Shown: positions 6,179 to 24,892 of the stretch, piece by piece
Layout of the letters: every line of letters begins with the position of its first letter
How positions within the stretch are numbered: the stretch's first letter is position 1
Assembly: GCF_055900595.2 (NCBI RefSeq)
Contig: NZ_CM148325.1
DNA length: 64,000 nucleotides
Strand: one strand, 5' to 3'
Notes under the pieces: model-generated
Told to the model about the DNA's origin: nothing
What the model saw: only the letters and a program-made list of their open reading frames with translations
The model's database searches: none
Made by a program: the position numbers and the translations under genes

Positions 6179-7417
6179 TTAATCAGGCTTTGGACAACGT
6201 TGTTCCTTCCAGCTGGCTACCGCCGCAATCCGCCGTCGGGTCAGCTCTTCGCGAATCTCCACACCTTTAAATCCCGCTTCAACGACGGCTTTTGTCGGCA
6301 CTGACTGTGCCACTTCCCAGGCTTCGCGCAACCAGCGGCCTTGCGGGTAGTCCGCTGATTCAAAACCGGTTCTGCCGCGCACATCAGCCTCGCTGGTCAG
6401 CGCCAGTTGCTCGACACGCTGCGGTTTACGCCAGGCGTCGATGGAATCAAATAGTTTGACGATGGTTTTTGGGTTCAGCATTGGGAAGGTGTGGATGAGA
6501 TCGTGAAACTCAGCCACCAGTCTGGCTAAATCGCGAATTTCATTTGGCACGCGCAGACGCTGGCATAGTTGTTCCACTAACTTCACACCCACCGGGCCAT
6601 GACCATGATGACGCGGCCAAAGTTCTGGCGGCGTCAGTCCTTTACCGAGATCGTGGCATAGCGTTGCGAAACGGACATCGACCTGCGGACTTAGCATCGC
6701 CGCCATTGAGAGCGTCATTAAGGTGTGAATACCGGTGTCGATTTCCGGATGCCACTTGGCAGGGGCCGGAACGCCAAACAGGGCGTCAATTTCCGGGAAT
6801 AAAACGCGCAGTGCGCCGCAATCGCGCAGTACCTGGAAGAACACCTGGGGATTGCGGGTAGTGAGGGCGCTTTCCGTCTCTTTCCACACCCGTTCAGGCG
6901 TCAGGTGTTCCAGTTCACCCGCGTGGGTCATCTCGCGCATCAGCGCCAGAGTTTCATCGGCAATACGAAAACCGAGGTGGGCATAACGCGCAGCAAAACG
7001 CGCCACGCGCAGTACGCGTAACGGATCTTCGCCAAAAGCGGGGGAAACATGGCGCAACAGACGATTTTGCAGATCGCCCAGACCGTTGTACGGGTCGATA
7101 ATCTCGCCGTTATCGTCCTGGGCCAGCGCATTAATGGTCAGATCGCGCCGCTTAAGATCATCTTCCAGCGTGACATCCGGTGCGGCATAGCAGGTAAAAC
7201 CGGTGTAACCGGAACCGGATTTCCGTTCGGTACGTGCCAGCGCATACTCTTCATGCGTTTGCGGATGCAGAAAAACAGGAAAATCGCGGCCTACCTGCTG
7301 GTAGCCCGCGTCGAGCATCTCCTGTGGCGTACTACCGACTACCACCCAATCTCTGTCTTTGACCGGTAGCCCTAACAATGCATCCCGAACAGCACCACCG
7401 ACCAGATAAATCTTCAC
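6179..7417 (-). CDS. cca: tRNA nucleotidyltransferase (CCA-adding enzyme) with HD phosphohydrolase domain
   Basis: 412-aa [31 protein letters not shown]...; HD motif (LCHDLGKG). Confidence 0.9.
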
Positions 7418-7480
7418 GCCATCATCCCTTCGTCAAATACACAATTCCTAATAATAAGACAGTGCAACGAAGAAGGCGAT

Positions 7481-8101
7481 TTAGTTCATCCAGCGATCTT
7501 TACGTTTGCGCGTTGGGATCAGGTGCGGCAGTACCAGACCGAGCAGCAAGCCAAGCCCCAGCACGCCGCCACCATACATAAACCACTGCATGATGATGGT
7601 GCGCTGTTTGTCATCCAGCTGCACGCTGGCGGCATCGACCTTTTTCTGCGCGACAATCAGCTCGTTTTTCAGTTTCTGATTTTCTTCTTTTAACCCGTTG
7701 ATCACGCTGTCGCTCTGCGCCACTTTTTGCTGCATTTCTGCGGTGCGCTGATTCCAGGTGTTATCGATATTGGTGAGCTTATCGGTCAGGGTTTTGACCT
7801 GATTTTCCAGATCTGGCACACGGGAGCGCAGGCTTGGCTCTGTGCTAAGTTGTTTCAACGGGATCCAGGCAGTACGGCCAGAGCTGTCTTTCACCTGGGC
7901 ATAATTGGTGTTGGCGTCAGTTTGTAATAAGGTCACTTCCTCGCCGGCGTTAACCGTGCCCACGAGGCGATAATGGTCTCCCGGACCGCTACGGACCCAG
8001 GTATTCAGTTCGTCAGAAACATAGCGCGTTTCTTCAGCGTGTGAGACGGCAGTGGCGCTAAGCGCGAGTAAAGTTAATCCGATCAGGCGTAATTTTGGCA
8101 T
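7481..8101 (-). CDS. ygiM: SH3-domain signal-transduction protein YgiM (HtrG)
   Basis: 206-aa ORF with signal peptide, coiled-coil segment and C-terminal TM helix. Confidence 0.8.
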   Translation of the reverse strand: MPKLRLIGLTLLALSATAVSHAEETRYVSDELNTWVRSGPGDHYRLVGTVNAGEEVTLLQTDANTNYAQVKDSSGRTAWIPLKQLSTEPSLRSRVPDLENQVKTLTDKLTNIDNTWNQRTAEMQQKVAQSDSVINGLKEENQKLKNELIVAQKKVDAASVQLDDKQRTIIMQWFMYGGGVLGLGLLLGLVLPHLIPTRKRKDRWMN

Positions 8102-8443
8102 CAGGCTGTCGTTATTGTCATGGAAAGTGGAACGATAGTAGTGGCATCAGTGTCGCTACGCAAAGCATTCGACATCAATCGGAATCCTCTGTGTCAGGTC
8201 TTGCCACTGCTTCAAACTTTTACGCCCGTCAAATTGCCCGTTGCATGGCAATTTGGCGCAAAATACTATCTACTGACAAAAAAGATCGCATTAAGTTCGC
8301 CGTTCATCGTCACTTATGTGACATAACCGATAAGTAAAGGCCTTGACATCCTCCCCCACCTTCGCGCAAAGCGACTCAGGAGGGGGATTCCCTTGTCAGG
8401 GTAGCAATACGTTGCCGCATTGCCCGGTTCCTCGCTCGACGGC

Positions 8444-9649
8444 TTACGCCGCCTTACGGGCGCGTCCTTTACGGACTGACGGCAATATTTGTCCTGCCGC
8501 CATGACTTCAAAACCTGCTGTTAATATATTGCGAGCGCCGTTTACATCGGCGTTTGCCGTATAGCCGCACGCGGTACAGATAAAGCTCGCCTGCGTCCTG
8601 CGGTTATTTTTCGATGTATGCCCACAACATGCGCATTTCTGACTGGTGTACGCCGGATTAATCGCCAGCACATCACCGCCGCGCCATGCCTGCTTATATT
8701 CGAGCTGGCGGCGCATTTCTGCCCAGCCCTGATCCAGTATCGCCCGGTTAAGACCTGATTTTGCCGCGACGTTGCGCCCCGGCTGGTCTACCGTACCCGC
8801 TGCTGATTTTGACATGTTCGAAACCTTTAAATCCTCAATGACTATCATCGCGTGGTTTTTGCTGATCGTCGTCGTGGTTTTATGAAGGTAATCGCGGCGG
8901 ATGTTTGCGATATGAGAGTGGAAACGGGAAATCTTCGCTTTCTGCTTTTTCCAGTTGGCGGAGAATTTAACCATCCGGGCCAGACGGCGCTGTAAGCGAG
9001 CCAGCTTATCCTGATTTTTTTTAAAGCTGTTTACCGGTTCAAAGACCGTGCCGTCTGAAAGTGTTGCCAGCTTTGTTATACCTGCATCCAGGCCTATTGC
9101 GCTGGTCGATGCGTGAATCGGATCGGTAACAGCTAATTCGACCTGAAAAGACACATACCAGTGTCCGGCATGCTGGCTGATGGTGCAATTTTTAATGACG
9201 CCTTCAATCTTCCGGGACTGACGAAATTTAACCCAGCCCAGTCCTGACGAGAGTTTCACACGGCCATAATCCAGCCCACAATATTTGCTGAAATTGACGA
9301 ACCGGATAGAGTCGCAGCCTTTGGTTTTCTTTTTGAAAACGGGCTTTTCAGCCGTCAGGGATTTATCAAAACAGCGATCCCATGCGCTCCGCAGGTCTTT
9401 CAGTTTCTGCTGGAGGTTGTCAGTGTAACCCTCAGCAAGAAAGGCCAGCTCAGGGAGTTTTTTCCAGCCCGTAAGTCGTTTATTCAGGTCGAAAGCTGAC
9501 GGAATTTTTCCGCCCGCGTCATGAATGCTCAGTGTTTCATTCAGTGCATAGTTCCAGACAAAGCGAGCGCAACCGCACAACTGACGCAACCTTTGCGCCT
9601 GCTGGTCAGTGGGGTAGAGCCTGTATTTATATGCTTTCTGGATTAACAT
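8444..9649 (-). CDS. tnpB: TnpB (OrfB) RuvC-like putative RNA-guided endonuclease of IS200/IS605 family
   Basis: 401-aa ORF; RuvC-I (AIGLDAGI), RuvC-II (IVIEDLKV), zinc finger CACCGH...CTACGY, RuvC-III (NADVNGARNI) all present. Confidence 0.9.
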   Translation of the reverse strand: MLIQKAYKYRLYPTDQQAQRLRQLCGCARFVWNYALNETLSIHDAGGKIPSAFDLNKRLTGWKKLPELAFLAEGYTDNLQQKLKDLRSAWDRCFDKSLTAEKPVFKKKTKGCDSIRFVNFSKYCGLDYGRVKLSSGLGWVKFRQSRKIEGVIKNCTISQHAGHWYVSFQVELAVTDPIHASTSAIGLDAGITKLATLSDGTVFEPVNSFKKNQDKLARLQRRLARMVKFSANWKKQKAKISRFHSHIANIRRDYLHKTTTTISKNHAMIVIEDLKVSNMSKSAAGTVDQPGRNVAAKSGLNRAILDQGWAEMRRQLEYKQAWRGGDVLAINPAYTSQKCACCGHTSKNNRRTQASFICTACGYTANADVNGARNILTAGFEVMAAGQILPSVRKGRARKAA

Positions 9650-9661
9650 TTTGCATTCAGT

Positions 9662-10114
9662 ATGTGGTTATTTAGAATGTACAATATATCCACATTTTTT
9701 TGGGAGGATCAATACGTGTGCGAAATCAATCGTTCACGCTATTCAGCTTACCTGTTGCATGTTCACGTTGTTTTTATGACAAAATACCGCCGTCCAGTTT
9801 TTGGTGAATTGCATCATGCAAACATGCGTCAGTATGTAGCGGAGGTATGCGCGGACTTTGGCGCCGAGTTAAAGGAATGTGACGGCGAGGCAGATCATGT
9901 TCACATGCTGATTGAATACCCACCGTTGGTGCAACTCACAAAGCTGGTAAACAGCCTTAAGTCCGTTACCAGTAGGCGGCTGCGGAATGATTTTATTGAT
10001 TTGCGCGCCGCGTATTCAAAGCCCGTACTCTGGTCACGCTCTTATTTCATCGGTTCATGTGGTGGAGCACCGCTGGAAGTTGTGAAAAAGTATATTCAGA
10101 ATCAGCGTGGCTGA
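9662..10114 (+). CDS. tnpA: IS200/IS605-family Y1 (HUH) transposase TnpA
   Basis: 150-aa ORF; HVHML (HuH) motif and C-terminal catalytic Tyr region (SYFIGSCGG); true start may be internal to the track ORF. Confidence 0.82.
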   Translation: MWLFRMYNISTFFWEDQYVCEINRSRYSAYLLHVHVVFMTKYRRPVFGELHHANMRQYVAEVCADFGAELKECDGEADHVHMLIEYPPLVQLTKLVNSLKSVTSRRLRNDFIDLRAAYSKPVLWSRSYFIGSCGGAPLEVVKKYIQNQRG

Positions 10115-10184
10115 TAAACTGCGGGCTTAACAGCCCAAATTCCCCTCCCGCCTACGTTGGGGGGGAGTACCCAGTGGAGGAAGG

Positions 10185-11486
10185 ATGGCTCAGGAAATCG
10201 AATTAAAGTTTATTGTTAATCACAGTGCCGTTGAGGCGTTGCGTGACCATCTCAATACGCTGGGCGGCGAGCACCATGACCCCGTGCAGTTGCTGAATAT
10301 TTACTACGAAACGCTGGATAACTGGCTGCGTGGGCACGACATGGGCTTACGTATCCGTGGCGAAAACGGTCGCTATGAGATGACCATGAAAGTTGCAGGA
10401 AGAGTGACAGGCGGCTTACACCAGCGCCCGGAATATAACGTGGCTTTGAGCGAACCGACGCTCGACCTGGCGCAGTTACCGACGGAAGTCTGGCCGAACG
10501 GCGAATTGCCTGCCGATCTCGCTTCCCGCGTACAACCGCTGTTCAGCACCGATTTTTATCGCGAAAAGTGGCTGGTAGAGGTCGATGGTAGCCAAATTGA
10601 AATCGCTCTCGACCAGGGGGAAGTGAAAGCGGGGGAATTTGCTGAGCCTATCTGCGAGCTTGAACTGGAACTGCTTAGCGGCGACACGCGCGCCGTGCTG
10701 AAACTGGCGAACCAACTGGTATCGCAAACCGGATTACGTCAGGGCAGCCTGAGCAAAGCCGCGCGCGGCTATCATCTGGCGCAGGGCAATCCCGCGCGTG
10801 AAATCAAACCGACCACCATTTTGCATGTTGCGGCAAAAGCCGATGTGGAACAGGGGCTGGAAGCGGCGCTCGAGCTGGCGTTAGCGCAATGGCAGTATCA
10901 TGAAGAACTGTGGGTCCGCGGCAACGATGCGGCGAAAGAGCAAGTGCTGGCTGCCATTGGCCTGGTCCGTCATACGCTGATGCTGTTCGGTGGCATTGTG
11001 CCGCGTAAAGCGAGCACTCACTTACGTGACCTGCTGACTCAATGCGAAGCGACCATCGCATCTGCGGTGTCTGCCGTAACGGCGGTCTACTCTACCGAAA
11101 CGGCGATGGCGAAGCTGGCGTTGACCGAATGGCTGGTAAGCAAAGCCTGGCAGCCGTTTTTAGATGCCAAAGCGCAGGGCAAAATCAGCGATTCTTTCAA
11201 ACGCTTTGCCGATATCCATCTTTCCCGCCATGCCGCTGAACTGAAAAGCGTTTTCTGCCAGCCATTAGGCGATCGCTACCGTGACCAATTGCCGCGCCTG
11301 ACGCGTGACATTGACTCAATATTGTTGCTGGCGGGTTACTACGATCCTCTCGTCGCGCAAGCCTGGCTGGAGAACTGGCAGGGACTGCGTCATGCCATTG
11401 CGACCGGGCAACGCATTGAAATTGAACATTTCCGTAATGAGGCAAACAATCAGGAACCGTTCTGGTTGCACAGCGGAAAACGTTAA
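10185..11486 (+). CDS. ygiF: inorganic triphosphatase (CYTH + CHAD domains) YgiF
   Basis: 433-aa [14 protein letters not shown]... (CYTH EXEXK motif); immediately upstream of glnE. Confidence 0.88.
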
Positions 11487-11508
11487 TCAGGCAAGGATAA
11501 AATCGCTT

Positions 11509-14349
11509 ATGAAGCCGCTCTCTTCACCGTTACAGCAGTACTGGCAGACCGTTGTTGAGCGGCTGCCAGCGCCTTTAGCCGAGGAATCACTTAGCGCACA
11601 GGCGAAGTCAGTACTTACCTTCAGTGATTTTGTGCAGGACAGCGTAATTGCGCATCCAGAGTGGCTGACGGAACTGGAAAGCCAGCCGCCGCAGGCCGAC
11701 GAATGGCAGCATTACGGTGCATGGTTGCAGAAGGCGCTCAGTGATGTAAGCGACGAAGCAGGGTTAATGCGTGAGCTGCGTCTGTTCCGGCGGCGCATTA
11801 TGGTGCGCATTGCCTGGGCGCAAACGCTGGCACTGGTTACTGAAGAGAGCATATTGCAGCAGCTCAGCCATCTGGCGGAGACATTGATTGTCGCCGCGCG
11901 TGACTGGCTGTATGAGGCCTGCTGCCGCGAGTGGGGTACGCCCTGCAATGCGCAGGGTGAAGCGCAACCGCTGCTGATTTTAGGCATGGGTAAACTGGGC
12001 GGCGGGGAGCTGAATTTTTCCTCAGATATCGATCTGATTTTTGTCTGGCCGGAACATGGTTGCACGCAGGGCGGACGCAGGGAACTGGATAACGCTCAGT
12101 TCTTTACCCGCATGGGTCAGCGGCTGATTAAAGTGCTGGATCAACCAACGCAGGATGGTTTTGTTTATCGCGTGGATATGCGACTGCGTCCGTTTGGCGA
12201 AAGTGGCCCGCTGGTGCTGAGCTTTGCGGCACTGGAAGACTATTACCAGGAGCAGGGGCGCGACTGGGAGCGTTACGCGATGGTCAAGGCGCGGATTATG
12301 GGGGATAGCGAAGGCGTCTATGCTAACGAGTTGCGTGCGATGCTGCGCCCGTTTGTTTTCCGCCGTTACATCGATTTCAGCGTCATCCAGTCGCTGCGCA
12401 ACATGAAAGGGATGATTGCCCGTGAAGTACGTCGTCGTGGTTTGACCGATAACATCAAACTTGGCGCGGGTGGCATTCGCGAAATTGAATTTATCGTCCA
12501 GGTATTCCAGCTCATTCGCGGCGGGCGCGAACCGTCGCTGCAATCGCGCTCTTTACTGCCAACGCTCAGCGCCATTGCCGCGCTGCATCTGCTTTCTGAA
12601 AACGATGCCGAACAATTGCGAGTGGCGTATCTCTTCCTGCGGCGTCTGGAAAACCTGCTGCAAAGCATTAACGACGAACAAACTCAGACGCTTCCTTCGG
12701 ATGAGCTTAACCGTGCGCGGCTGGCATGGGCAATGGATTTCGCGGACTGGCCGCAACTAACCGGGGCGCTGACCGGACATATGACCAATGTGCGCCGGGT
12801 GTTTAACGAATTGATTGGCGATGACGAAAGCGAAACACAGGAAGAGTCGCTATCGGAACAGTGGCGTGAGTTGTGGCAGGATGCGTTGCAGGAAGATGAC
12901 ACTACGCCAGTACTGGCGCATCTTAGCGAAGATGATCGCAAACAGGTGCTAACACTGATTGCCGATTTCCGCAAAGAGCTGGATAAGCGCACAATCGGGC
13001 CGCGAGGACGTCAGGTGCTCGACCATCTGATGCCGCATCTGCTAAGTGATGTCTGTGCGCGTGAAGACGCTGCTGTCACGCTGTCGCGCATTACGGCTTT
13101 GCTGGTGGGGATTGTTACCCGCACTACCTATCTTGAGCTGCTTAGTGAATTCCCCGCAGCGCTTAAGCATTTGATTTCGCTGTGCGCCGCATCGCCGATG
13201 ATTGCCAGCCAACTGGCGCGTTATCCATTATTGCTGGACGAACTGCTCGATCCGAACACTCTTTACCAGCCGACGGCGACGGATGCCTACCGTGATGAAC
13301 TGCGCCAGTATTTGCTGCGCGTGCCGGAAGATGACGAAGAACAACAGCTTGAGGCGCTGCGTCAGTTCAAACAGGCGCAACTGTTACGTATTGCGGCAGC
13401 GGATATCGCCGGTACGCTACCGGTAATGAAAGTGAGCGATCACTTAACCTGGCTGGCGGAAGCTATGATAGATGCCGTCGTTCAGCAGGCGTGGGTTCAA
13501 ATGGTTGCCCGCTACGGTAAACCGAATCACCTGAACGAACGCGAAGGGCGTGGTTTTGCGGTGGTCGGCTACGGCAAGCTGGGCGGCTGGGAGTTAGGCT
13601 ACAGTTCCGATCTTGACCTGATCTTCCTCCATGATTGCCCAATGGATGCGATGACTGACGGCGAGCGGGAAATCGACGGGCGACAGTTTTATCTGCGTCT
13701 GGCGCAACGCATTATGCACCTGTTCAGCACGCGAACTTCTTCCGGTATTTTGTACGAAGTGGATGCACGGCTGCGTCCGTCCGGGGCGGCGGGAATGCTG
13801 GTTACCTCTGCAGAAGCGTTTGCCGATTATCAGAAAAACGAGGCCTGGACGTGGGAGCATCAGGCGCTGGTGCGTGCGCGTGTAGTGTACGGCGATCCGC
13901 AGCTCACCGCGCACTTTGACGCGGTGCGTCGCGAGATTATGACGCTGCCGCGTGAAGGTAAAACTCTGCAAACGGAAGTGCGGGAAATGCGCGAGAAAAT
14001 GCGCGCGCATCTCGGCAATAAACATCGCGATCGCTTTGATATCAAAGCCGATGAAGGCGGAATTACCGATATCGAATTTATTACCCAATATCTGGTGTTG
14101 CGCTACGCTCATGAAAAACCGAAGTTAACGCGCTGGTCAGACAACGTGCGTATTCTGGAGCTGCTGGCGCAAAACGACATTATGGAAGAGCAGGAAGCGA
14201 TGGCGCTGACCCGTGCTTACACGACGCTGCGCGATGAACTTCATCATCTGGCATTACAGGAATTGCCGGGTCATGTGCCGGAAGATTGCTTTACCGCAGA
14301 GCGTGAACTGGTGCGGGCAAGCTGGCAGAAGTGGCTGGTGGAAGAATGA
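11509..14349 (+). CDS. glnE: glutamine synthetase adenylyltransferase/adenylyl-removing enzyme
   Basis: 946-aa product from ATG 11509 ([20 protein letters not shown]...); track ORF 11305 is an upstream in-frame extension overlapping ygiF. Confidence 0.92.
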
Positions 14350-20134: not shown

Positions 20135-20788
20135 ATGAATCAGACGCTACTTTCCTCTTTTGGTACGCCTTTCGAACGTGTTGAAAATGCACTGGCTGCG
20201 CTGCGTGAAGGACGCGGTGTAATGGTGCTTGATGATGAAGACCGTGAAAACGAAGGCGATATGATCTTCCCGGCAGAAACCATGACCGTTGAGCAGATGG
20301 CGCTGACCATTCGCCACGGTAGCGGTATTGTTTGCCTGTGCATTACTGAAGATCGCCGTAAACAACTCGATCTGCCAATGATGGTAGAAAATAACACCAG
20401 CGCCTATGGCACCGGTTTTACCGTGACCATTGAAGCGGCTGAAGGTGTGACTACCGGTGTTTCTGCCGCTGACCGTATTACTACCGTTCGCGCAGCGATT
20501 GCCGATGGCGCAAAACCTTCTGATCTGAATCGTCCTGGCCACGTTTTCCCACTGCGCGCGCAGGCGGGTGGTGTGCTGACGCGTGGCGGCCATACTGAAG
20601 CGACTATTGATCTGATGACGCTGGCAGGCTTTAAACCGGCTGGTGTGCTGTGTGAGCTGACTAATGACGATGGCACGATGGCGCGTGCACCAGAGTGCAT
20701 TGAGTTTGCCAATAAACACAATATGGCGCTCGTGACTATTGAAGACCTGGTGGCATACCGTCAGGCACATGAGCGTAAAGCTAGCTGA
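20135..20788 (+). CDS. ribB: 3,4-dihydroxy-2-butanone-4-phosphate synthase
   Basis: 217-aa [45 protein letters not shown]... Confidence 0.92.
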
Positions 20789-20820
20789 AAACCGCTGCTT
20801 AATTTACCGCGTTAATCAAT

Positions 20821-21528
20821 AAATATCCTCCGGCATAGCCGGAGGTTTTTCAAATGCGCCTGTAAGGCTCTGTTACCAGCCGCGCCCTAACAGGCGCATA
20901 CGATCTGACATTTGCATTCAACTTCGTTACTTACGGCCCGTAAACGGGCTGCCCGGATATGGAATCGATAACTGCTCCCCCATTTTATCCTCTTCAAGCT
21001 GGTGCTTTATGTAGTCCTGTATCTTCGCCGTGTTCTTACCCACCGTATCGACATAGTACCCTCGGCACCAGAACTCCCTGTTTCTGTATTTGAATTTCAA
21101 ATCCCCAAACTGCTCGTAAAGCATCAGACTGCTTTTCCCTTTCAGATATCCCATAAAGCCGGATACGCTCATTTTGGGTGGGATTTCCACAAGCATATGG
21201 ATATGATCTGCGCAGCACTCTGCTTCCAGAATCCGTACGCTTTTCCACTCACACAGCTTTCTCAAAATACTGCCTATCGCCCTACGCTTCTCTCCGTAAA
21301 ACGCCAGTCTTCGGTATTTCGGCGCAAAAACTATGTGATATTTACAGTTCCAGCGGGTGTGCGCTAAGCTCTTTTCGTCCCCCATTGGGACCCCCTTTTG
21401 ATTTCTTGTTTGACACTTGCAGTTGCCAGACCGCAAGGTGTTTTAACAAATCAAAAGGGGTTTTAATAACTGGCTCAAAGCTGAAAGCTTTCCGGAACCC
21501 CCAGCCTAGCTGGGGGTTTTCTGTGCAC
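20821..21528 (-). mobile_element. IS200 insertion sequence (~708 bp); ends inferred (+/-20 bp)
   Basis: 152-aa IS200 TnpA; left end (high coordinate) inferred from hairpins at 21495-21517 and 21391-21460, which match the recalled IS200 leader positions (nt 12-34 and 69-138). Confidence 0.65.
20927..21385 (-). CDS. tnpA: IS200 transposase TnpA (Y1/HUH)
   Basis: MGDEKSLAHTRWNCKYHIVFAPKYRR...HIHMLVEIPP...; 152 aa from second in-frame ATG. Confidence 0.9.
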   Translation of the reverse strand: MGDEKSLAHTRWNCKYHIVFAPKYRRLAFYGEKRRAIGSILRKLCEWKSVRILEAECCADHIHMLVEIPPKMSVSGFMGYLKGKSSLMLYEQFGDLKFKYRNREFWCRGYYVDTVGKNTAKIQDYIKHQLEEDKMGEQLSIPYPGSPFTGRK

Positions 21529-21530
21529 AA

Positions 21531-21565
21531 GAAACCGAAGCTATTACTGGCTTCGGTTTTTATTT
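21531..21565 (+). terminator. Rho-independent terminator, probably the native ribB terminator displaced by IS200
   Basis: gaaaccgaagc-tattactg-gcttcggttt followed by TTTATTTT, immediately outside the inferred IS200 left end. Confidence 0.5.
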
Positions 21566-21761
21566 TGCTCTTGTTATGCAAGATGTTAATTCCTCTTCTC
21601 TTTCTATGAGAAAATTTCATTAATATCAGGCATTCTTTTCCATTATGATCAAAATCATATAATTGTTCCGTTATTATGCGACCATATGAATATATCCGAA
21701 AAAGGATATGTGAATTTTATGCGCTAAATGTTTAGTATTGTTAAATATTAAGGGTAAAAGG

Positions 21762-21932
21762 ATGTTTATCGCCTGGTACTGGATTGTATTGATTGCTCTG
21801 GTTGTGGTGGGTTATTTACTGCATTTGAAACGTTATTGTCGGGCGTTTCGTCAGGACAGAGACGCACTGCTTGAAGCGCGGAATAAATACTTAAACAGTA
21901 CGAGAGAAGAGACAGCCGAGAAGGTAGAATAG
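21762..21932 (+). CDS. small (56 aa) single-TM membrane protein, unnamed
   Basis: RBS aagggtaaaagg-ATG; N-terminal hydrophobic helix then charged tail; followed by a 12-bp-stem hairpin (21950-21980). Confidence 0.4.
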   Translation: MFIAWYWIVLIALVVVGYLLHLKRYCRAFRQDRDALLEARNKYLNSTREETAEKVE

Positions 21933-21949
21933 GGCTTTAGTGAAGCTGG

Positions 21950-21980
21950 CAGAAGTTGTCCATGCGCTGGACAACTTCTG
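21950..21980. terminator. bidirectional terminator hairpin between small ORF and zupT
   Basis: cagaagttgtcc-atgcgct-ggacaacttctg perfect 12-bp stem, T-rich 3' flank. Confidence 0.55.
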
Positions 21981-21989
21981 ATGTTGCTT

Positions 21990-22763
21990 TTAACCAATTC
22001 CCGCCGTTTGTAGTAGCACTAAACTGAATCCCATCACTGACATTCCACATAGCACGCCATAGCTGGGGTTATTATTGGGGTCAATCTCTTTAGCTAGCGG
22101 CATTAATTCATCAACCGAGAGCGCCACCATAATTCCTGCAACCGCCGCCATGATTGCCGCCATGACCACCGGAGAAATCATGCTACCGAGGATTAACCAC
22201 GCCAGAACACCACCAAGAATTTCTGCCAGCCCAGAAATGCCCGCCCACAAAATTGCGGTGCGTTTTGACCCCGTTGCCGCGTAAACCGGCCCCGCAACTG
22301 CCAGACCTTCAGGAATATTATGCAATGCAACAGCCAGCGCGATGCCAAAGCCCAGCTCCAGGTTACTGCTCGCCGTGACAAAGGTGGCAATGCCTTCCGG
22401 GAAGTTATGCAGACTGATGCCGAGAGTGAGCAGAATGGCTGTGCGCTTGATCGATTTTGGCAACGGCTGCACCGATTTTTGCATTAAATCCTGCGGATGC
22501 GCATGTGGCAACATGCGGTCCAGACCAAAATAGCCAAGCAGACCGAAGATAAACATTCCATAACCCAGCACAGGCGACATTCCTTCGGCGGCTAATGCGG
22601 CAGGAAGCATTTCCATTAATGAGATGAGCAACATAATCCCCGCCGCAAATCCTAGCGAAAACGCCAGTAAGCGGTTCGAGGGTTTTTGTCCGAGAACGCC
22701 GAGAAACGCGCCAATAAACGTGGCTGCCCCCGCCAGTATGGTCAGAATGAGAGGTACTGACAT
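21990..22763 (-). CDS. zupT: ZIP-family zinc transporter ZupT
   Basis: 257-aa membrane ORF from [20 protein letters not shown]... Confidence 0.88.
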
Positions 22764-22878
22764 CGACAACTCCTTATAAATCTTTACCTTCAGGCAGATC
22801 GTCAAAATAACTGATGATCATCATCATTGTTATCCGGGTTCTTACTCCGCCGAACAAGCGTATTGTGAGGATATCAAA

Positions 22879-23694
22879 ATGACACCTTTAGTTAAGGATA
22901 TCATCATGTCTTCAACACGTATGCCAGCATTGTTTTTAGGTCACGGTAGTCCGATGAACGTGCTGGAAGATAATTTGTATACCCGCAGCTGGCAGAAGTT
23001 GGGGATGACATTGCCACGCCCGCAAGCGATTGTTGTGGTTTCGGCTCACTGGTTTACCCGTGGAACTGGAGTGACCGCGATGGAGACGCCGCCCACGATT
23101 CATGATTTTGGCGGTTTTCCGCAGGCGCTGTACGACACCCATTATCCTGCTCCGGGTTCGCCTGCGCTGGCACAGCGTCTGGTTGAGCTGTTAGCGCCGG
23201 TCCCTGTGACGCTGGATAAAGAAGCCTGGGGCTTTGACCACGGTTCCTGGGGCGTGCTGATTAAGATGTATCCTGACGCCGATATCCCGATGGTGCAGTT
23301 GAGTATCGACAGTACCAAACCTGCCGCCTGGCACTTTGAGATGGGGCGTAAACTGGCGGCTCTGCGAGACGAAGGAATAATGTTGGTCGCCAGCGGTAAC
23401 GTGGTGCATAACCTGCGTACGGTGAAGTGGCACGGTGATAGTTCACCGTATCCTTGGGCGATGTCGTTTAATGAGTATGTGAAAGCGAATCTGACGTGGC
23501 AAGGACCGGTAGAACAGCATCCTCTGGTGAATTATCTCGACCATGAAGGTGGCGCGTTATCGAACCCAACGCCAGAGCACTATCTGCCGTTGTTGTATGT
23601 CTTAGGTGCGTGGGATGGGCAGGAGCCAATTACCATTCCGGTCGATGGTATAGAAATGGGCAGTTTAAGTATGTTGTCGGTGCAGATAGGCTAA
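22879..23694 (+). CDS. ygiD: 4,5-DOPA dioxygenase extradiol-like protein YgiD
   Basis: ORF ...MPALFLGHGSPMNVLED...; start could be the internal ATG at 22909. Confidence 0.8.
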   Translation: MTPLVKDIIMSSTRMPALFLGHGSPMNVLEDNLYTRSWQKLGMTLPRPQAIVVVSAHWFTRGTGVTAMETPPTIHDFGGFPQALYDTHYPAPGSPALAQRLVELLAPVPVTLDKEAWGFDHGSWGVLIKMYPDADIPMVQLSIDSTKPAAWHFEMGRKLAALRDEGIMLVASGNVVHNLRTVKWHGDSSPYPWAMSFNEYVKANLTWQGPVEQHPLVNYLDHEGGALSNPTPEHYLPLLYVLGAWDGQEPITIPVDGIEMGSLSMLSVQIG

Positions 23695-23731
23695 TAATTA
23701 CCGGATGGCGAGTGCCATCCGGTATCATGGC

Positions 23732-24892
23732 TTATTCAACAAAAATATGTGGATAAAACCGAGACATATCCTGGGTGATCAATGCACGGTCTTCACGAAT
23801 GCCAATTCCGGCAGGTTGATCGTTCACCAGCCAGCTACCAATCAGCATATAGCTATCGCCGAATTTTGGTAACGGGTGGAATTGCTGAACAATCATCCCT
23901 TCTTCGCCATACGGACCTTCTGCTGCTTCAATGGTTTTGCCGTTCTCAATGATCGACACGTTTGCGCCTTCACGGGAGAAGATCGGTTTAACCACATATT
24001 TTTCCATTTGCGGATGATCATCTTCCGCAAAATAAGCGGGCAGCAGGTTCGGGTGATTCGGGAACATCTCCCACAGTAGCGGCAGAAGCGCTTTGTTGGA
24101 GATAATGCTCTTCCACGCCGGTTCCAGCCAGCGTACGCCTGCATCCTCCAGCTTGGTGGAGAACATCTCACGCAGCATAAATTCCCACGGATACAGCTTG
24201 AACAGGTTAGAAATCACCTGATCCTGTAAATCCGTGAACTGACCTTTTTCGCCTAAACCGATATCGTCGATGTAGAGGAATTCAGTAGCGATTTCAGCTT
24301 CTGTCGCGCAGTCCTGCAAATACTGAATGGTTCCGCGATCTTCCACCGTGTCGCGACAGCAGGTGAGATGCAGCAACTGGAAGCCATACTGTTCACGCAG
24401 CTGGACAAAGCGATCGATCAGCTTCTCTTGCAGACTGTTAAACTGGTCGCTGCCTTCCGGCAGGTTACCGGCGTTAAGCTGATCTTCCAGCCAGATCCAC
24501 TGAAAGAATGCGGCTTCATACAGTGACGTTGGCGTATCGGCGTTATTTTCCAGAAGTTTAGGTTCGCCAGTACCATCCCACGCCAGATCAAGACGCGAAT
24601 AAAGCGATGGCTGGTGAGTCAGCCATGACTGGCGCACAAAACTCCAGGTGTGTTTTGGAATGCGGAATTTGGTCATCAGCTCATCGCTGGCGATCACTTT
24701 TTCAACCACTTTCAGGCACATCTGGTGCAGTTCGGCGGTGACTTCTTCCAGCTTTTCAACCTGGGAGAGGGTCAACTTGTAGTAAGCATCTTCACACCAG
24801 TATGGCTCTCCGTACATGGTGTGAAAATTGAAACCGTATTCGTGGGCTTTTTCGCGCCAGTCCGGACGCTCGGTAATACTGACTCTTTCCAT
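23732..24892 (-). CDS. ygiC: glutathionylspermidine synthase-like ATP-grasp protein YgiC
   Basis: 386-aa [35 protein letters not shown]... Confidence 0.88.

Follow-up and report, generated by a model that had tools for sequence, protein, structure and literature searches.

An ISEc41-type IS200/IS605 element lies flush against the ygiF start codon of Escherichia coli and supplies the ygiF leader

IS605 and IS608 of Helicobacter pylori and ISDra2 of Deinococcus resemble the element described here in that they pair a Y1 HUH transposase (TnpA) with TnpB, lack terminal inverted repeats (TIRs) and produce no target duplication. They have subterminal imperfect palindromes, and are also alike in having a left end (LE) situated immediately 3' of a fixed target of 4-5 nt. 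IS200 of Salmonella belongs to the same transposase family and is similarly low-copy and apparently near-immobile, with structured ends; in IS200, tnpA follows the LE, which prevents read-in by means of a terminator and sequesters the ribosome-binding site (RBS) in a stem. Another set of parallels is found in IS10 pOUT, the hybrid promoters of IS1, IS2 and IS5, ISEcp1-blaCTX-M and ISAba1-blaOXA, where an IS end replaces a gene's own expression signals, as appears to be the case at the locus considered here. In work on TnpB homing, vacant sites are cleaved where a TAM-like target is followed by the flank of the right end (RE); as in those systems, an intact tnpB abuts the RE in the present element (Karvelis 2021, PMC8612924; Meers 2023, 10.1101/2023.03.14.532601; Zedaveinyte 2023, 10.1101/2023.11.20.567912). 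How does a copy at the start of an E. coli gene compare with these systems?

The window analysed is a 64,000-nt stretch of an E. coli chromosome. Its gene order is cca, ygiM (minus strand), tnpB (minus strand), tnpA (plus strand), then ygiF, glnE and hldE (plus strand), with tnpB reading toward ygiM. The main features are:

7481-8101, minus strand: ygiM, an SH3-domain protein gene and divergent neighbour (open reading frame list, Pfam SH3_3, RefSeq annotation at identical loci)
8102-8342, plus strand: native ygiM-ygiF intergenic region, 241 bp (intact and identical in alignment with K-12)
8343-10184, minus strand: complete ISEc41-type IS200/IS605 element, 1842 bp (empty-site comparison, RefSeq naming, ends common to relatives)
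8444-9649, minus strand: tnpB, 401 aa, RNA-guided endonuclease family protein (Pfam, NCBIfam)
9662-10114, plus strand: tnpA, Y1/HUH transposase, from the annotated ATG at 9662 (Pfam, NCBIfam)
10185-11486, plus strand: ygiF, inorganic triphosphatase with CYTH and CHAD domains, intact at 433 aa (Pfam, PDB 5A60)
11509-14349, plus strand: glnE, 22 nt 3' of the ygiF stop (Pfam GlnE; CFT073 RefSeq start mapped onto the window)

The boundaries of the insert were set by aligning the window with the empty site of K-12 MG1655, which reads ...GTAAAGGCC|ATGGCTCAG..., where the bar marks the insertion point, or at greater length ...GATAAGTAAAGGCC|ATGGCTCAGGAA.... The left flank stops at 8342 and the right flank resumes at 10185, with no target duplication at the 1842-bp insert in this comparison. 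The bases flanking each junction differ, so both junctions are fixed and cannot slide by 1 bp. The top strand of the element corresponds to the minus strand of the window, with the LE at 10184, where it touches the ygiF ATG directly, and the RE at 8343.

The original prediction, which concerned an IS whose tnpA reads into ygiF-glnE, is borne out in most of its geometry. The tnpA gene is on the plus strand in the same direction as ygiF-glnE, its TGA occupies 10112-10114 and the gap to the ygiF ATG at 10185 is exactly 70 nt; the native upstream region, placed about 1.85 kb away, is displaced by 1842 bp. The position of the end, however, has to be revised. It was put some 10-20 bp upstream of the ygiF RBS, but the alignment places the tip at 10184, adjoining the ATG, and the Shine-Dalgarno (SD)-like sequence at 10176-10184 is therefore IS DNA. 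As the insertion is seamless, the LE tip constitutes the whole proximal 5' leader of ygiF. Rather than stopping short of the RBS, the element takes its place, together with that of the entire native 5'-UTR of ygiF; the native AAGG-CC-ATG leader bases now lie 1842 bp upstream of the gene.

Two independent checks agree with the empty site and confirm the same ends. In related elements from other hosts, the start base aligns with 8343 and the end base with 10184; these relatives are from a Citrobacter plasmid (77% identity), Klebsiella plasmids (74%), Aeromonas, a Rhodocyclaceae MAG and four Enterobacterales MAG copies. A 63-bp remnant found at the ygiF site in 10 E. coli genomes consists of 8343-8387 joined to 10167-10184; the join spans a GGGGGA microhomology, and the 18-bp tip still precedes the ygiF ATG. 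The start of ygiF itself is certain. The protein aligns with PDB 5A60/5A61 beginning at Met1, residue 4 opens the catalytic ExExK motif and an upstream in-frame stop is present at 10128-10130, all of which point to ATG 10185 as the true start.

The element has the protein signatures of its family. TnpA scores 135.4 bits with Pfam Y1_Tnp (cut-off 23) and 139.5 bits with NCBIfam NF033573 transpos_IS200 (cut-off 55), and its translation shows the HVH motif and the SYF tyrosine. TnpB contains the Pfam domains OrfB_IS605, Cas12f1-like_TNB (zinc-ribbon) and HTH_OrfB_IS605, and scores 356 bits with NCBIfam guided_TnpB (cut-off 100). The two genes are divergent, which is an IS605-type arrangement. A repeat search revealed no TIRs; only the hairpin arms of both ends resemble each other. 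Judged by its sequence, this is a normal IS200/IS605 family member, with a Y1 TnpA, a TnpB, neither TIR nor target site duplication, and a fixed target. The name ISEc41 follows the RefSeq product name of identical copies, 'IS200/IS605-like element ISEc41 family transposase'. For tnpA, a GTG at 9716 is a more likely start than the annotated ATG at 9662, because of a GGGAGGA SD at 9702-9708 and the upstream position of a promoter-like site, discussed below. The two ends are:

8343-8443, minus strand: RE, with an imperfect subterminal palindrome at about 8349-8388 (DNA fold; conserved from base 8343 in relatives)
10115-10184, plus strand: LE, with hairpins at 10122-10135 (small) and 10139-10168 (GC-rich, subterminal) and a 16-nt tip (RNA fold, relatives aligned)

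The RE and the 3' region of tnpB are conserved from base 8343 in alignments with the Citrobacter and Klebsiella relatives, and the top strand terminates here in ...ATGTCAA. As single-stranded DNA the RE top strand folds at -13.5 kcal/mol (z = -2.1), and the predicted fold of the LE top strand is no better than that of shuffled sequence (z = 0.15). As plus-strand RNA, the LE forms a stable 10-bp hairpin (10139-10168).

Why does the element end exactly at a start codon? The answer lies in its target:

10185-10188, plus strand: ATGG, the ygiF start codon plus one base and complement of the target 5'-CCAT-3' (empty site, relatives)

ATGG directly follows the LE in eight of the nine aligned relatives (the Citrobacter and Klebsiella plasmids, Aeromonas, Rhodocyclaceae and four MAG copies), and the visible flanks beyond it are unrelated; the ninth, a Mangrovibacter copy, has a different end. 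Since ATGG is already present in the K-12 empty site, it is target and not IS sequence. The comparisons indicate that the element inserts 3' of 5'-CCAT-3' on its top strand, i.e. the tnpB sense strand. Because CCAT is the complement of ATGG, the junction is flush with the ygiF ATG, and every gene whose first four bases are ATGG carries a target right at its start codon. A 50-kb sample of CFT073 contains 415 CCAT sites. The insertion point falls outside coding sequence in 38, and seven of these 38 are annotated ATGG start codons, so that start codons represent about one in five of the non-disruptive sites. An improbable coincidence is thereby ruled out; with disruptive insertions purged, insertion at a start codon is unremarkable. 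A CCAT-targeting IS200/IS605 element can thus land on an ATGG start codon and leave the gene whole. Fusion to gene starts was also looked for in other copies and is not found: in the four MAG copies and the Citrobacter copy, the ATG opens only short or unannotated frames.

What then is the translation signal of ygiF in this strain? The following sequence is the candidate:

10176-10184, plus strand: IS-derived SD-like GGAGGAAGG, with a GGAGG core ending 4 nt short of the ATG (no counterpart in the K-12 empty site)

At the same spot the K-12 allele reads AAGG-CC-ATG. The IS tip is computed to pair with the 16S 3' end at -9.3 kcal/mol and the K-12 leader at -3.5 kcal/mol, which suggests that the IS-supplied SD pairs better with 16S rRNA than does the native one. 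Translation of ygiF would proceed from the IS-borne SD; the -9.3 kcal/mol pairing counts toward such initiation, whereas the 4-nt spacing to the ATG, near the lower limit of what is functional, counts against it. Positions -13 to -4 in the IS allele have a mean unpaired probability of 0.38-0.59. The possibility that the LE hairpin sequesters the SD with its C-rich arm was considered and is unsupported, as this arm pairs with the G-run and not with the SD in both minimum free energy and ensemble structures.

The suggestion that ygiF is transcribed by read-through from tnpA, or from within the IS, is a reasonable one on the sequence. One site was prominent in the scans:

9650-9678, plus strand: best candidate tnpA promoter, TTTGCA-17 nt-TAGAAT (consensus scan; PWM 11.2)

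By consensus scan and position weight matrix (PWM), this is the strongest plus-strand promoter-like site near ygiF, located at the tnpA start; the sigma-70 PWM is rough, and scores at this level arise by chance about 0.33 times per kb. The TTTGCA block is conserved in both plasmid relatives but overlaps the tnpB start, and the -10 hexamer differs in the Citrobacter and Klebsiella relatives. Promoters of tnpA in the IS200 family are typically weak. Between tnpA and ygiF (10115-10184), neither consensus scan nor PWM gives a plus-strand promoter-like site above background, and no terminator-like site was found by scan. The untranslated stretch from the tnpA stop to the ygiF ATG is only 70 nt, which counts for read-through. 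The hairpin at 10139-10168 is followed by UACCCAGUGG and not by a U-run; an intrinsic terminator is ruled out on this ground, but a hairpin of this stability could pause or attenuate transcription even without a U-tract.

The mechanism proposed is that most ygiF transcription would come from the promoter-like site at 9650-9678, the tnpA transcript being extended at its 3' end through the LE hairpin and into ygiF. The explanation preferred as a whole combines a seamless IS insertion, tnpA read-through, an IS-derived SD and an extra promoter for glnE and hldE inside ygiF; it is judged somewhat more probable than not. A full-text literature search for ygiF or glnE promoters or transcription start sites gave only the RutR and SELEX papers considered below, and the supplements of Cappable-seq and SMRT-Cappable-seq contained no matches to the gene names or coordinates.

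Could the native ygiF promoter still drive the gene, with the whole IS forming a leader of about 1.9 kb? The native intergenic region is intact and 100% conserved, and it carries a candidate promoter pointing toward ygiF (TTGCAT at 8241-8246, a 17-nt spacer and TACTAT at 8264-8269), with a PWM score of 9.4 for which the background is about 0.9 per kb. Its displaced leader and promoter region now points into the antisense strand of tnpB, however, and the transcript would have to traverse the RE, antisense tnpB and then sense tnpA. No strong plus-strand terminator was found along this path; the sole candidate (8591-8603) has a weak 5-bp stem and is within chance expectation, although such as it is it would stand in the way. 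Long untranslated RNA is a good substrate for Rho-dependent termination, to which about 1.3 kb of untranslated antisense RNA would lend itself, and transcription would also collide with convergent tnpB/omega-RNA transcription. Such a long leader is considered very unlikely. A promoter directed outward from the 3' end of tnpA or from the LE, which would serve ygiF independently of tnpA transcription, is quite unlikely as well. Many other IS families carry outward promoters, and an extended -10-like TGATAAACT is present at 10111-10120, where TGnTAAACT fits the extended -10 pattern (PWM 5.9); but scores of 5.9-6.4, as seen in the LE and tnpA 3' end, arise 7-11 times per kb in the window, and the consensus scan shows no plus-strand site there and no recognisable -35. 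Finally, has the insertion effectively silenced ygiF, with the gene decaying in IS-bearing lineages? Its native promoter is displaced and ygiF is non-essential, but the 433-aa frame is intact in all eight IS-bearing genomes inspected and ygiF is annotated as intact in every IS-bearing genome among the matches listed, a strong SD precedes it, and the only pseudogene in the loci inspected is a frameshifted tnpB in one strain. The intactness of ygiF is weak evidence because the IS is young; silencing is nevertheless regarded as highly improbable.

The position of glnE differs from that of ygiF. Dependence of the nitrogen-regulatory glnE operon on the IS, as originally predicted, is only weakly supported, because K-12 has signals inside ygiF and the window contains sequences resembling a RutR box and a promoter:

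11121-11136, plus strand: RutR-like box TTGACCGAATGGCTGG inside ygiF (pattern search)
11422-11450, plus strand: candidate internal glnE promoter TTGAAC-17 nt-AACAAT, about 60 bp upstream of the glnE ATG (PWM 10.4)

In K-12, a RutR site is located inside ygiF, 373 bp upstream of glnE (PMC2475637), and a SELEX peak of RNA-polymerase holoenzyme lies upstream of glnE; the reported coordinates place it about 240 bp upstream, inside ygiF, and it was obtained in vitro with a minor sigma factor (PMC5493296). On these data, an additional promoter of glnE within ygiF is probable. A mere 22 nt, with no terminator, separate ygiF from glnE, and read-through or co-transcription into glnE is therefore expected. 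In the preferred explanation, glnE and hldE would receive tnpA read-through together with transcripts from a promoter in the 3' part of ygiF, and given such a promoter the nitrogen-regulatory function would be independent of the IS. A stronger version holds that promoters within or beyond ygiF drive glnE and hldE, and that the IS rewires ygiF alone and leaves these two essentially as they were. The K-12 peak (PMC5493296) and RutR site (PMC2475637), the box at 11121 and the promoter-like site at 11422-11450 (PWM 10.4) all favour it, and the IS-bearing strains include laboratory and probiotic strains that grow well; the short spacer, from which co-transcription is also expected, and the in vitro, minor-sigma nature of the peak weigh against it. 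The chances of this stronger version are put at slightly less than even.

How widespread is the insertion? The full IS is present at the ygiF junction in 146 of 5426 complete E. coli genomes, including CFT073, Nissle 1917, ATCC 25922, ABU 83972 and clone D, and the 63-bp remnant is in 10 further genomes of the same set. No copy of at least 99% identity was found at any other site, chromosomal or plasmid, in the complete E. coli genomes. Counts of the C/T allele at position -1, made by short BLAST queries, are approximate in that IS-bearing genomes also score 100% on half-queries. The IS is carried by several divergent E. coli backgrounds, which counts as tolerance of the insertion. The window strain and CFT073, for example, differ by 3.4-6% over about 30 kb; over the 2.9 kb on the left of the IS the difference is 3.7%, over the 3.2 kb on its right 5.0%, and in the IS itself only 0.49%. 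Among eight IS-bearing genomes, the IS copies are 0-0.81% apart, and the flanks up to 4.0% (left) and 5.35% (right). Values of dS between the window and CFT073 are 0.007 for tnpB and 0.011 for tnpA, as against 0.11 for cca, 0.10 for ygiM, 0.16 for ygiF and 0.25 for glnE. By this measure divergence in the IS genes is 10-30 times lower than in the genes on either side.

An IS that was ancestral to E. coli and repeatedly lost is ruled out by the dS of about 0.01 in the IS versus 0.10-0.25 in the flanks. With its genes so much less diverged than their surroundings, the IS is far younger than the lineages that carry it, pointing to recent lateral spread to the same site. Recurrent transposition is implausible because a single site is occupied among roughly eight CCAT per kb. 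The simplest reading of these comparisons is that the element passes laterally by homologous recombination, with the perfectly conserved DNA next to it as anchor. On the right of the IS, lineage-specific flank SNPs begin at a distance of 55-96 bp, and on the left at 189-280 bp. Closer to the element all alleles are identical, empty ones as well, and for this reason a co-conversion tract beside the IS, which was also considered, is uninformative.

Might TnpB have a part in this spread? One sequence next to the element deserves mention here:

8327-8342, minus strand: RE-flanking DNA, putative omega-RNA guide GGCCTTTACTTATCGG (analogy with characterised TnpB systems, PMC8612924; 10.1101/2023.03.14.532601)

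The empty site reads CCAT followed by GGCCTTTACTTATCGG, an arrangement like that of TAM and guide. A search of 7400-11600 for an omega-RNA or leader element gave no Rfam match at E <= 1. By analogy with related elements, it is possible that TnpB cleavage of empty sites stimulates transfer (10.1101/2023.03.14.532601; PMC8612924). In the most far-reaching interpretation, the element may not be a transposing IS in E. coli but a selfish allele tied to one locus, the ygiF start site, that has recently moved between deeply diverged lineages by homologous recombination, perhaps stimulated by TnpB. The 241-bp intergenic region and the first ygiF codons would act as recombination anchors; TnpB and omega-RNA might cut empty sites (TAM CCAT, guide GGCCTTTACTTATCGG), in an inter-strain homing analogous to that of homing endonuclease genes; and the IS would be tolerated or even favoured because of the stronger ygiF RBS and the transposase-driven transcript. 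The interpretation rests on the occupation of one site only, the dS of about 0.01 in the IS versus 0.10-0.25 in the flanks, and the flank SNPs near the junctions. It is speculative and, taken as a whole, unlikely to be correct. A literature search for ISEc41, or for TnpB in CFT073 or Nissle, yielded only resistance-typing lists and unrelated reviews, and Kaur et al. make no use of the ygiF-site element.

The insertion itself is ordinary and is already annotated in public genomes. Four things are new: the exact junction, with the IS tip serving as leader and SD of ygiF; the rule that the target is CCAT; the remnant allele; and the pattern across the population. CFT073, Nissle 1917, ATCC 25922, ABU 83972 and the window strain all have a ygiF without its native leader or RBS. 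Comparisons of ygiF and glnE expression, reporters and promoter annotations derived from K-12 will be wrong for these widely used strains. The wider point is the combination of a single locus, divergent flanks and a very shallow IS genealogy; should TnpB have a role in it, the pattern would amount to natural evidence that RNA-guided homing takes place between strains.

How, finally, does the ygiF-site element relate to the known systems? With an RE ending in TCAA it resembles IS608, and with divergent tnpA and tnpB it resembles IS605. The target differs, being CCAT here, as seen in eight relatives and the K-12 empty site, versus TTAC, TTTAA or TTGAT among the characterised IS605, IS608 and ISDra2; the LE tip of the enterobacterial copies also differs from those of the three elements in being purine-rich and SD-like. 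By sequence, the architecture is of the IS608 type with another tetranucleotide. Unlike Salmonella IS200, the ygiF-site element has its LE downstream of tnpA and no terminator-like structure with a U-tract. In contrast to the IS10, IS1, ISEcp1 and ISAba1 cases, what the sequence demonstrates at ygiF is replacement of the RBS and leader rather than of a promoter, with transcription presumably supplied by read-through of the transposase gene. An empty ygiF site would present the TAM-like CCAT directly before the RE flank, the same arrangement as in the TnpB homing papers. Those papers concern the retention of an element after excision within a cell, whereas the question raised by the ygiF site is one of spread between lineages.

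Among 5426 E. coli genomes, the IS is found at one site. How did it come to be there? When window 8343-10184 is compared with loci L002 and L050-L055 from other E. coli genomes, the dS of the IS is about 0.01, as against 0.10-0.25 for the neighbouring genes on both sides in the same genomes, i.e. the IS is 10-30 times less diverged, and lineage-specific SNPs reappear in the flanks 55-280 bp from the element. The single site, the low dS and the nearness of the lineage-specific SNPs imply that the IS spread laterally and recently into the identical site. Homologous recombination, possibly assisted by TnpB, may be the mechanism of this spread.

The base directly left of the element, window position 8342, is a C/T polymorphism across E. 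coli and would be position 1, the TAM-proximal one, of the presumed TnpB target. Genomes with the empty site carry C in roughly 4190 cases and T in about 450, e.g. LF82, N3 and ATCC 11775; the IS-bearing WL297 also has T. Farther along, past hldE (window ~20786-23732), CFT073 (locus L056) is collinear with the window and differs in content, with extra DNA of about 4.6 kb and 3.7 kb at two points; the blocks between these segments are only 92-94% identical to the window.

The IS copies themselves vary. The left-end hairpin has in its 3' arm (window 10159-10165) a G-run that is 7 nt long in the window, 2017-02-2CC, N96, R32_14_1F and WL297, and 6 nt long in CFT073, MS1494 and A25. The MS1494 tnpB is frameshifted (L054 3502-4706; window 8444-9649). 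Elsewhere among the copies, tnpB shows non-synonymous changes as often as synonymous ones (e.g. 6 and 3, respectively, between the window and WL297), which hints at relaxed constraint, the counts being too small for a test.

The annotated tnpA start, ATG 9662, lies 5' of, or inside, the best promoter-like site. The gene more plausibly starts at GTG 9716, which is in frame, follows a GGGAGGA at 9702-9708 and gives a product of 132 aa. On the opposite side, transcription of tnpB and of any omega-RNA leaves the element through its right end and heads for ygiM, which is on the same (minus) strand (window 8444-8101), and thus both IS genes read into the host genes beside them. The native promoter-like site of ygiF (8241-8269), now displaced, would direct transcription convergently into the right end. 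For glnE, the mechanical ORF list gives GTG 11305, with an overlap of 182 nt with ygiF; RefSeq and K-12 have ATG 11509, 22 nt past the ygiF stop.

A 63-bp remnant of the IS is present at the identical site in 10 complete E. coli genomes, and consists of 45 bp of the right end and the 18-bp tip of the left end:

L003 (E. coli RM14723) 1501-1563, IS remnant, equivalent to window 8343-8387 plus 10167-10184

The remnant arose by a deletion across a GGGGGA microhomology. It still places the IS-derived Shine-Dalgarno sequence before ygiF, and adds just 63 bp to the distance from the native promoter region. The remnant allele is thus a natural control.
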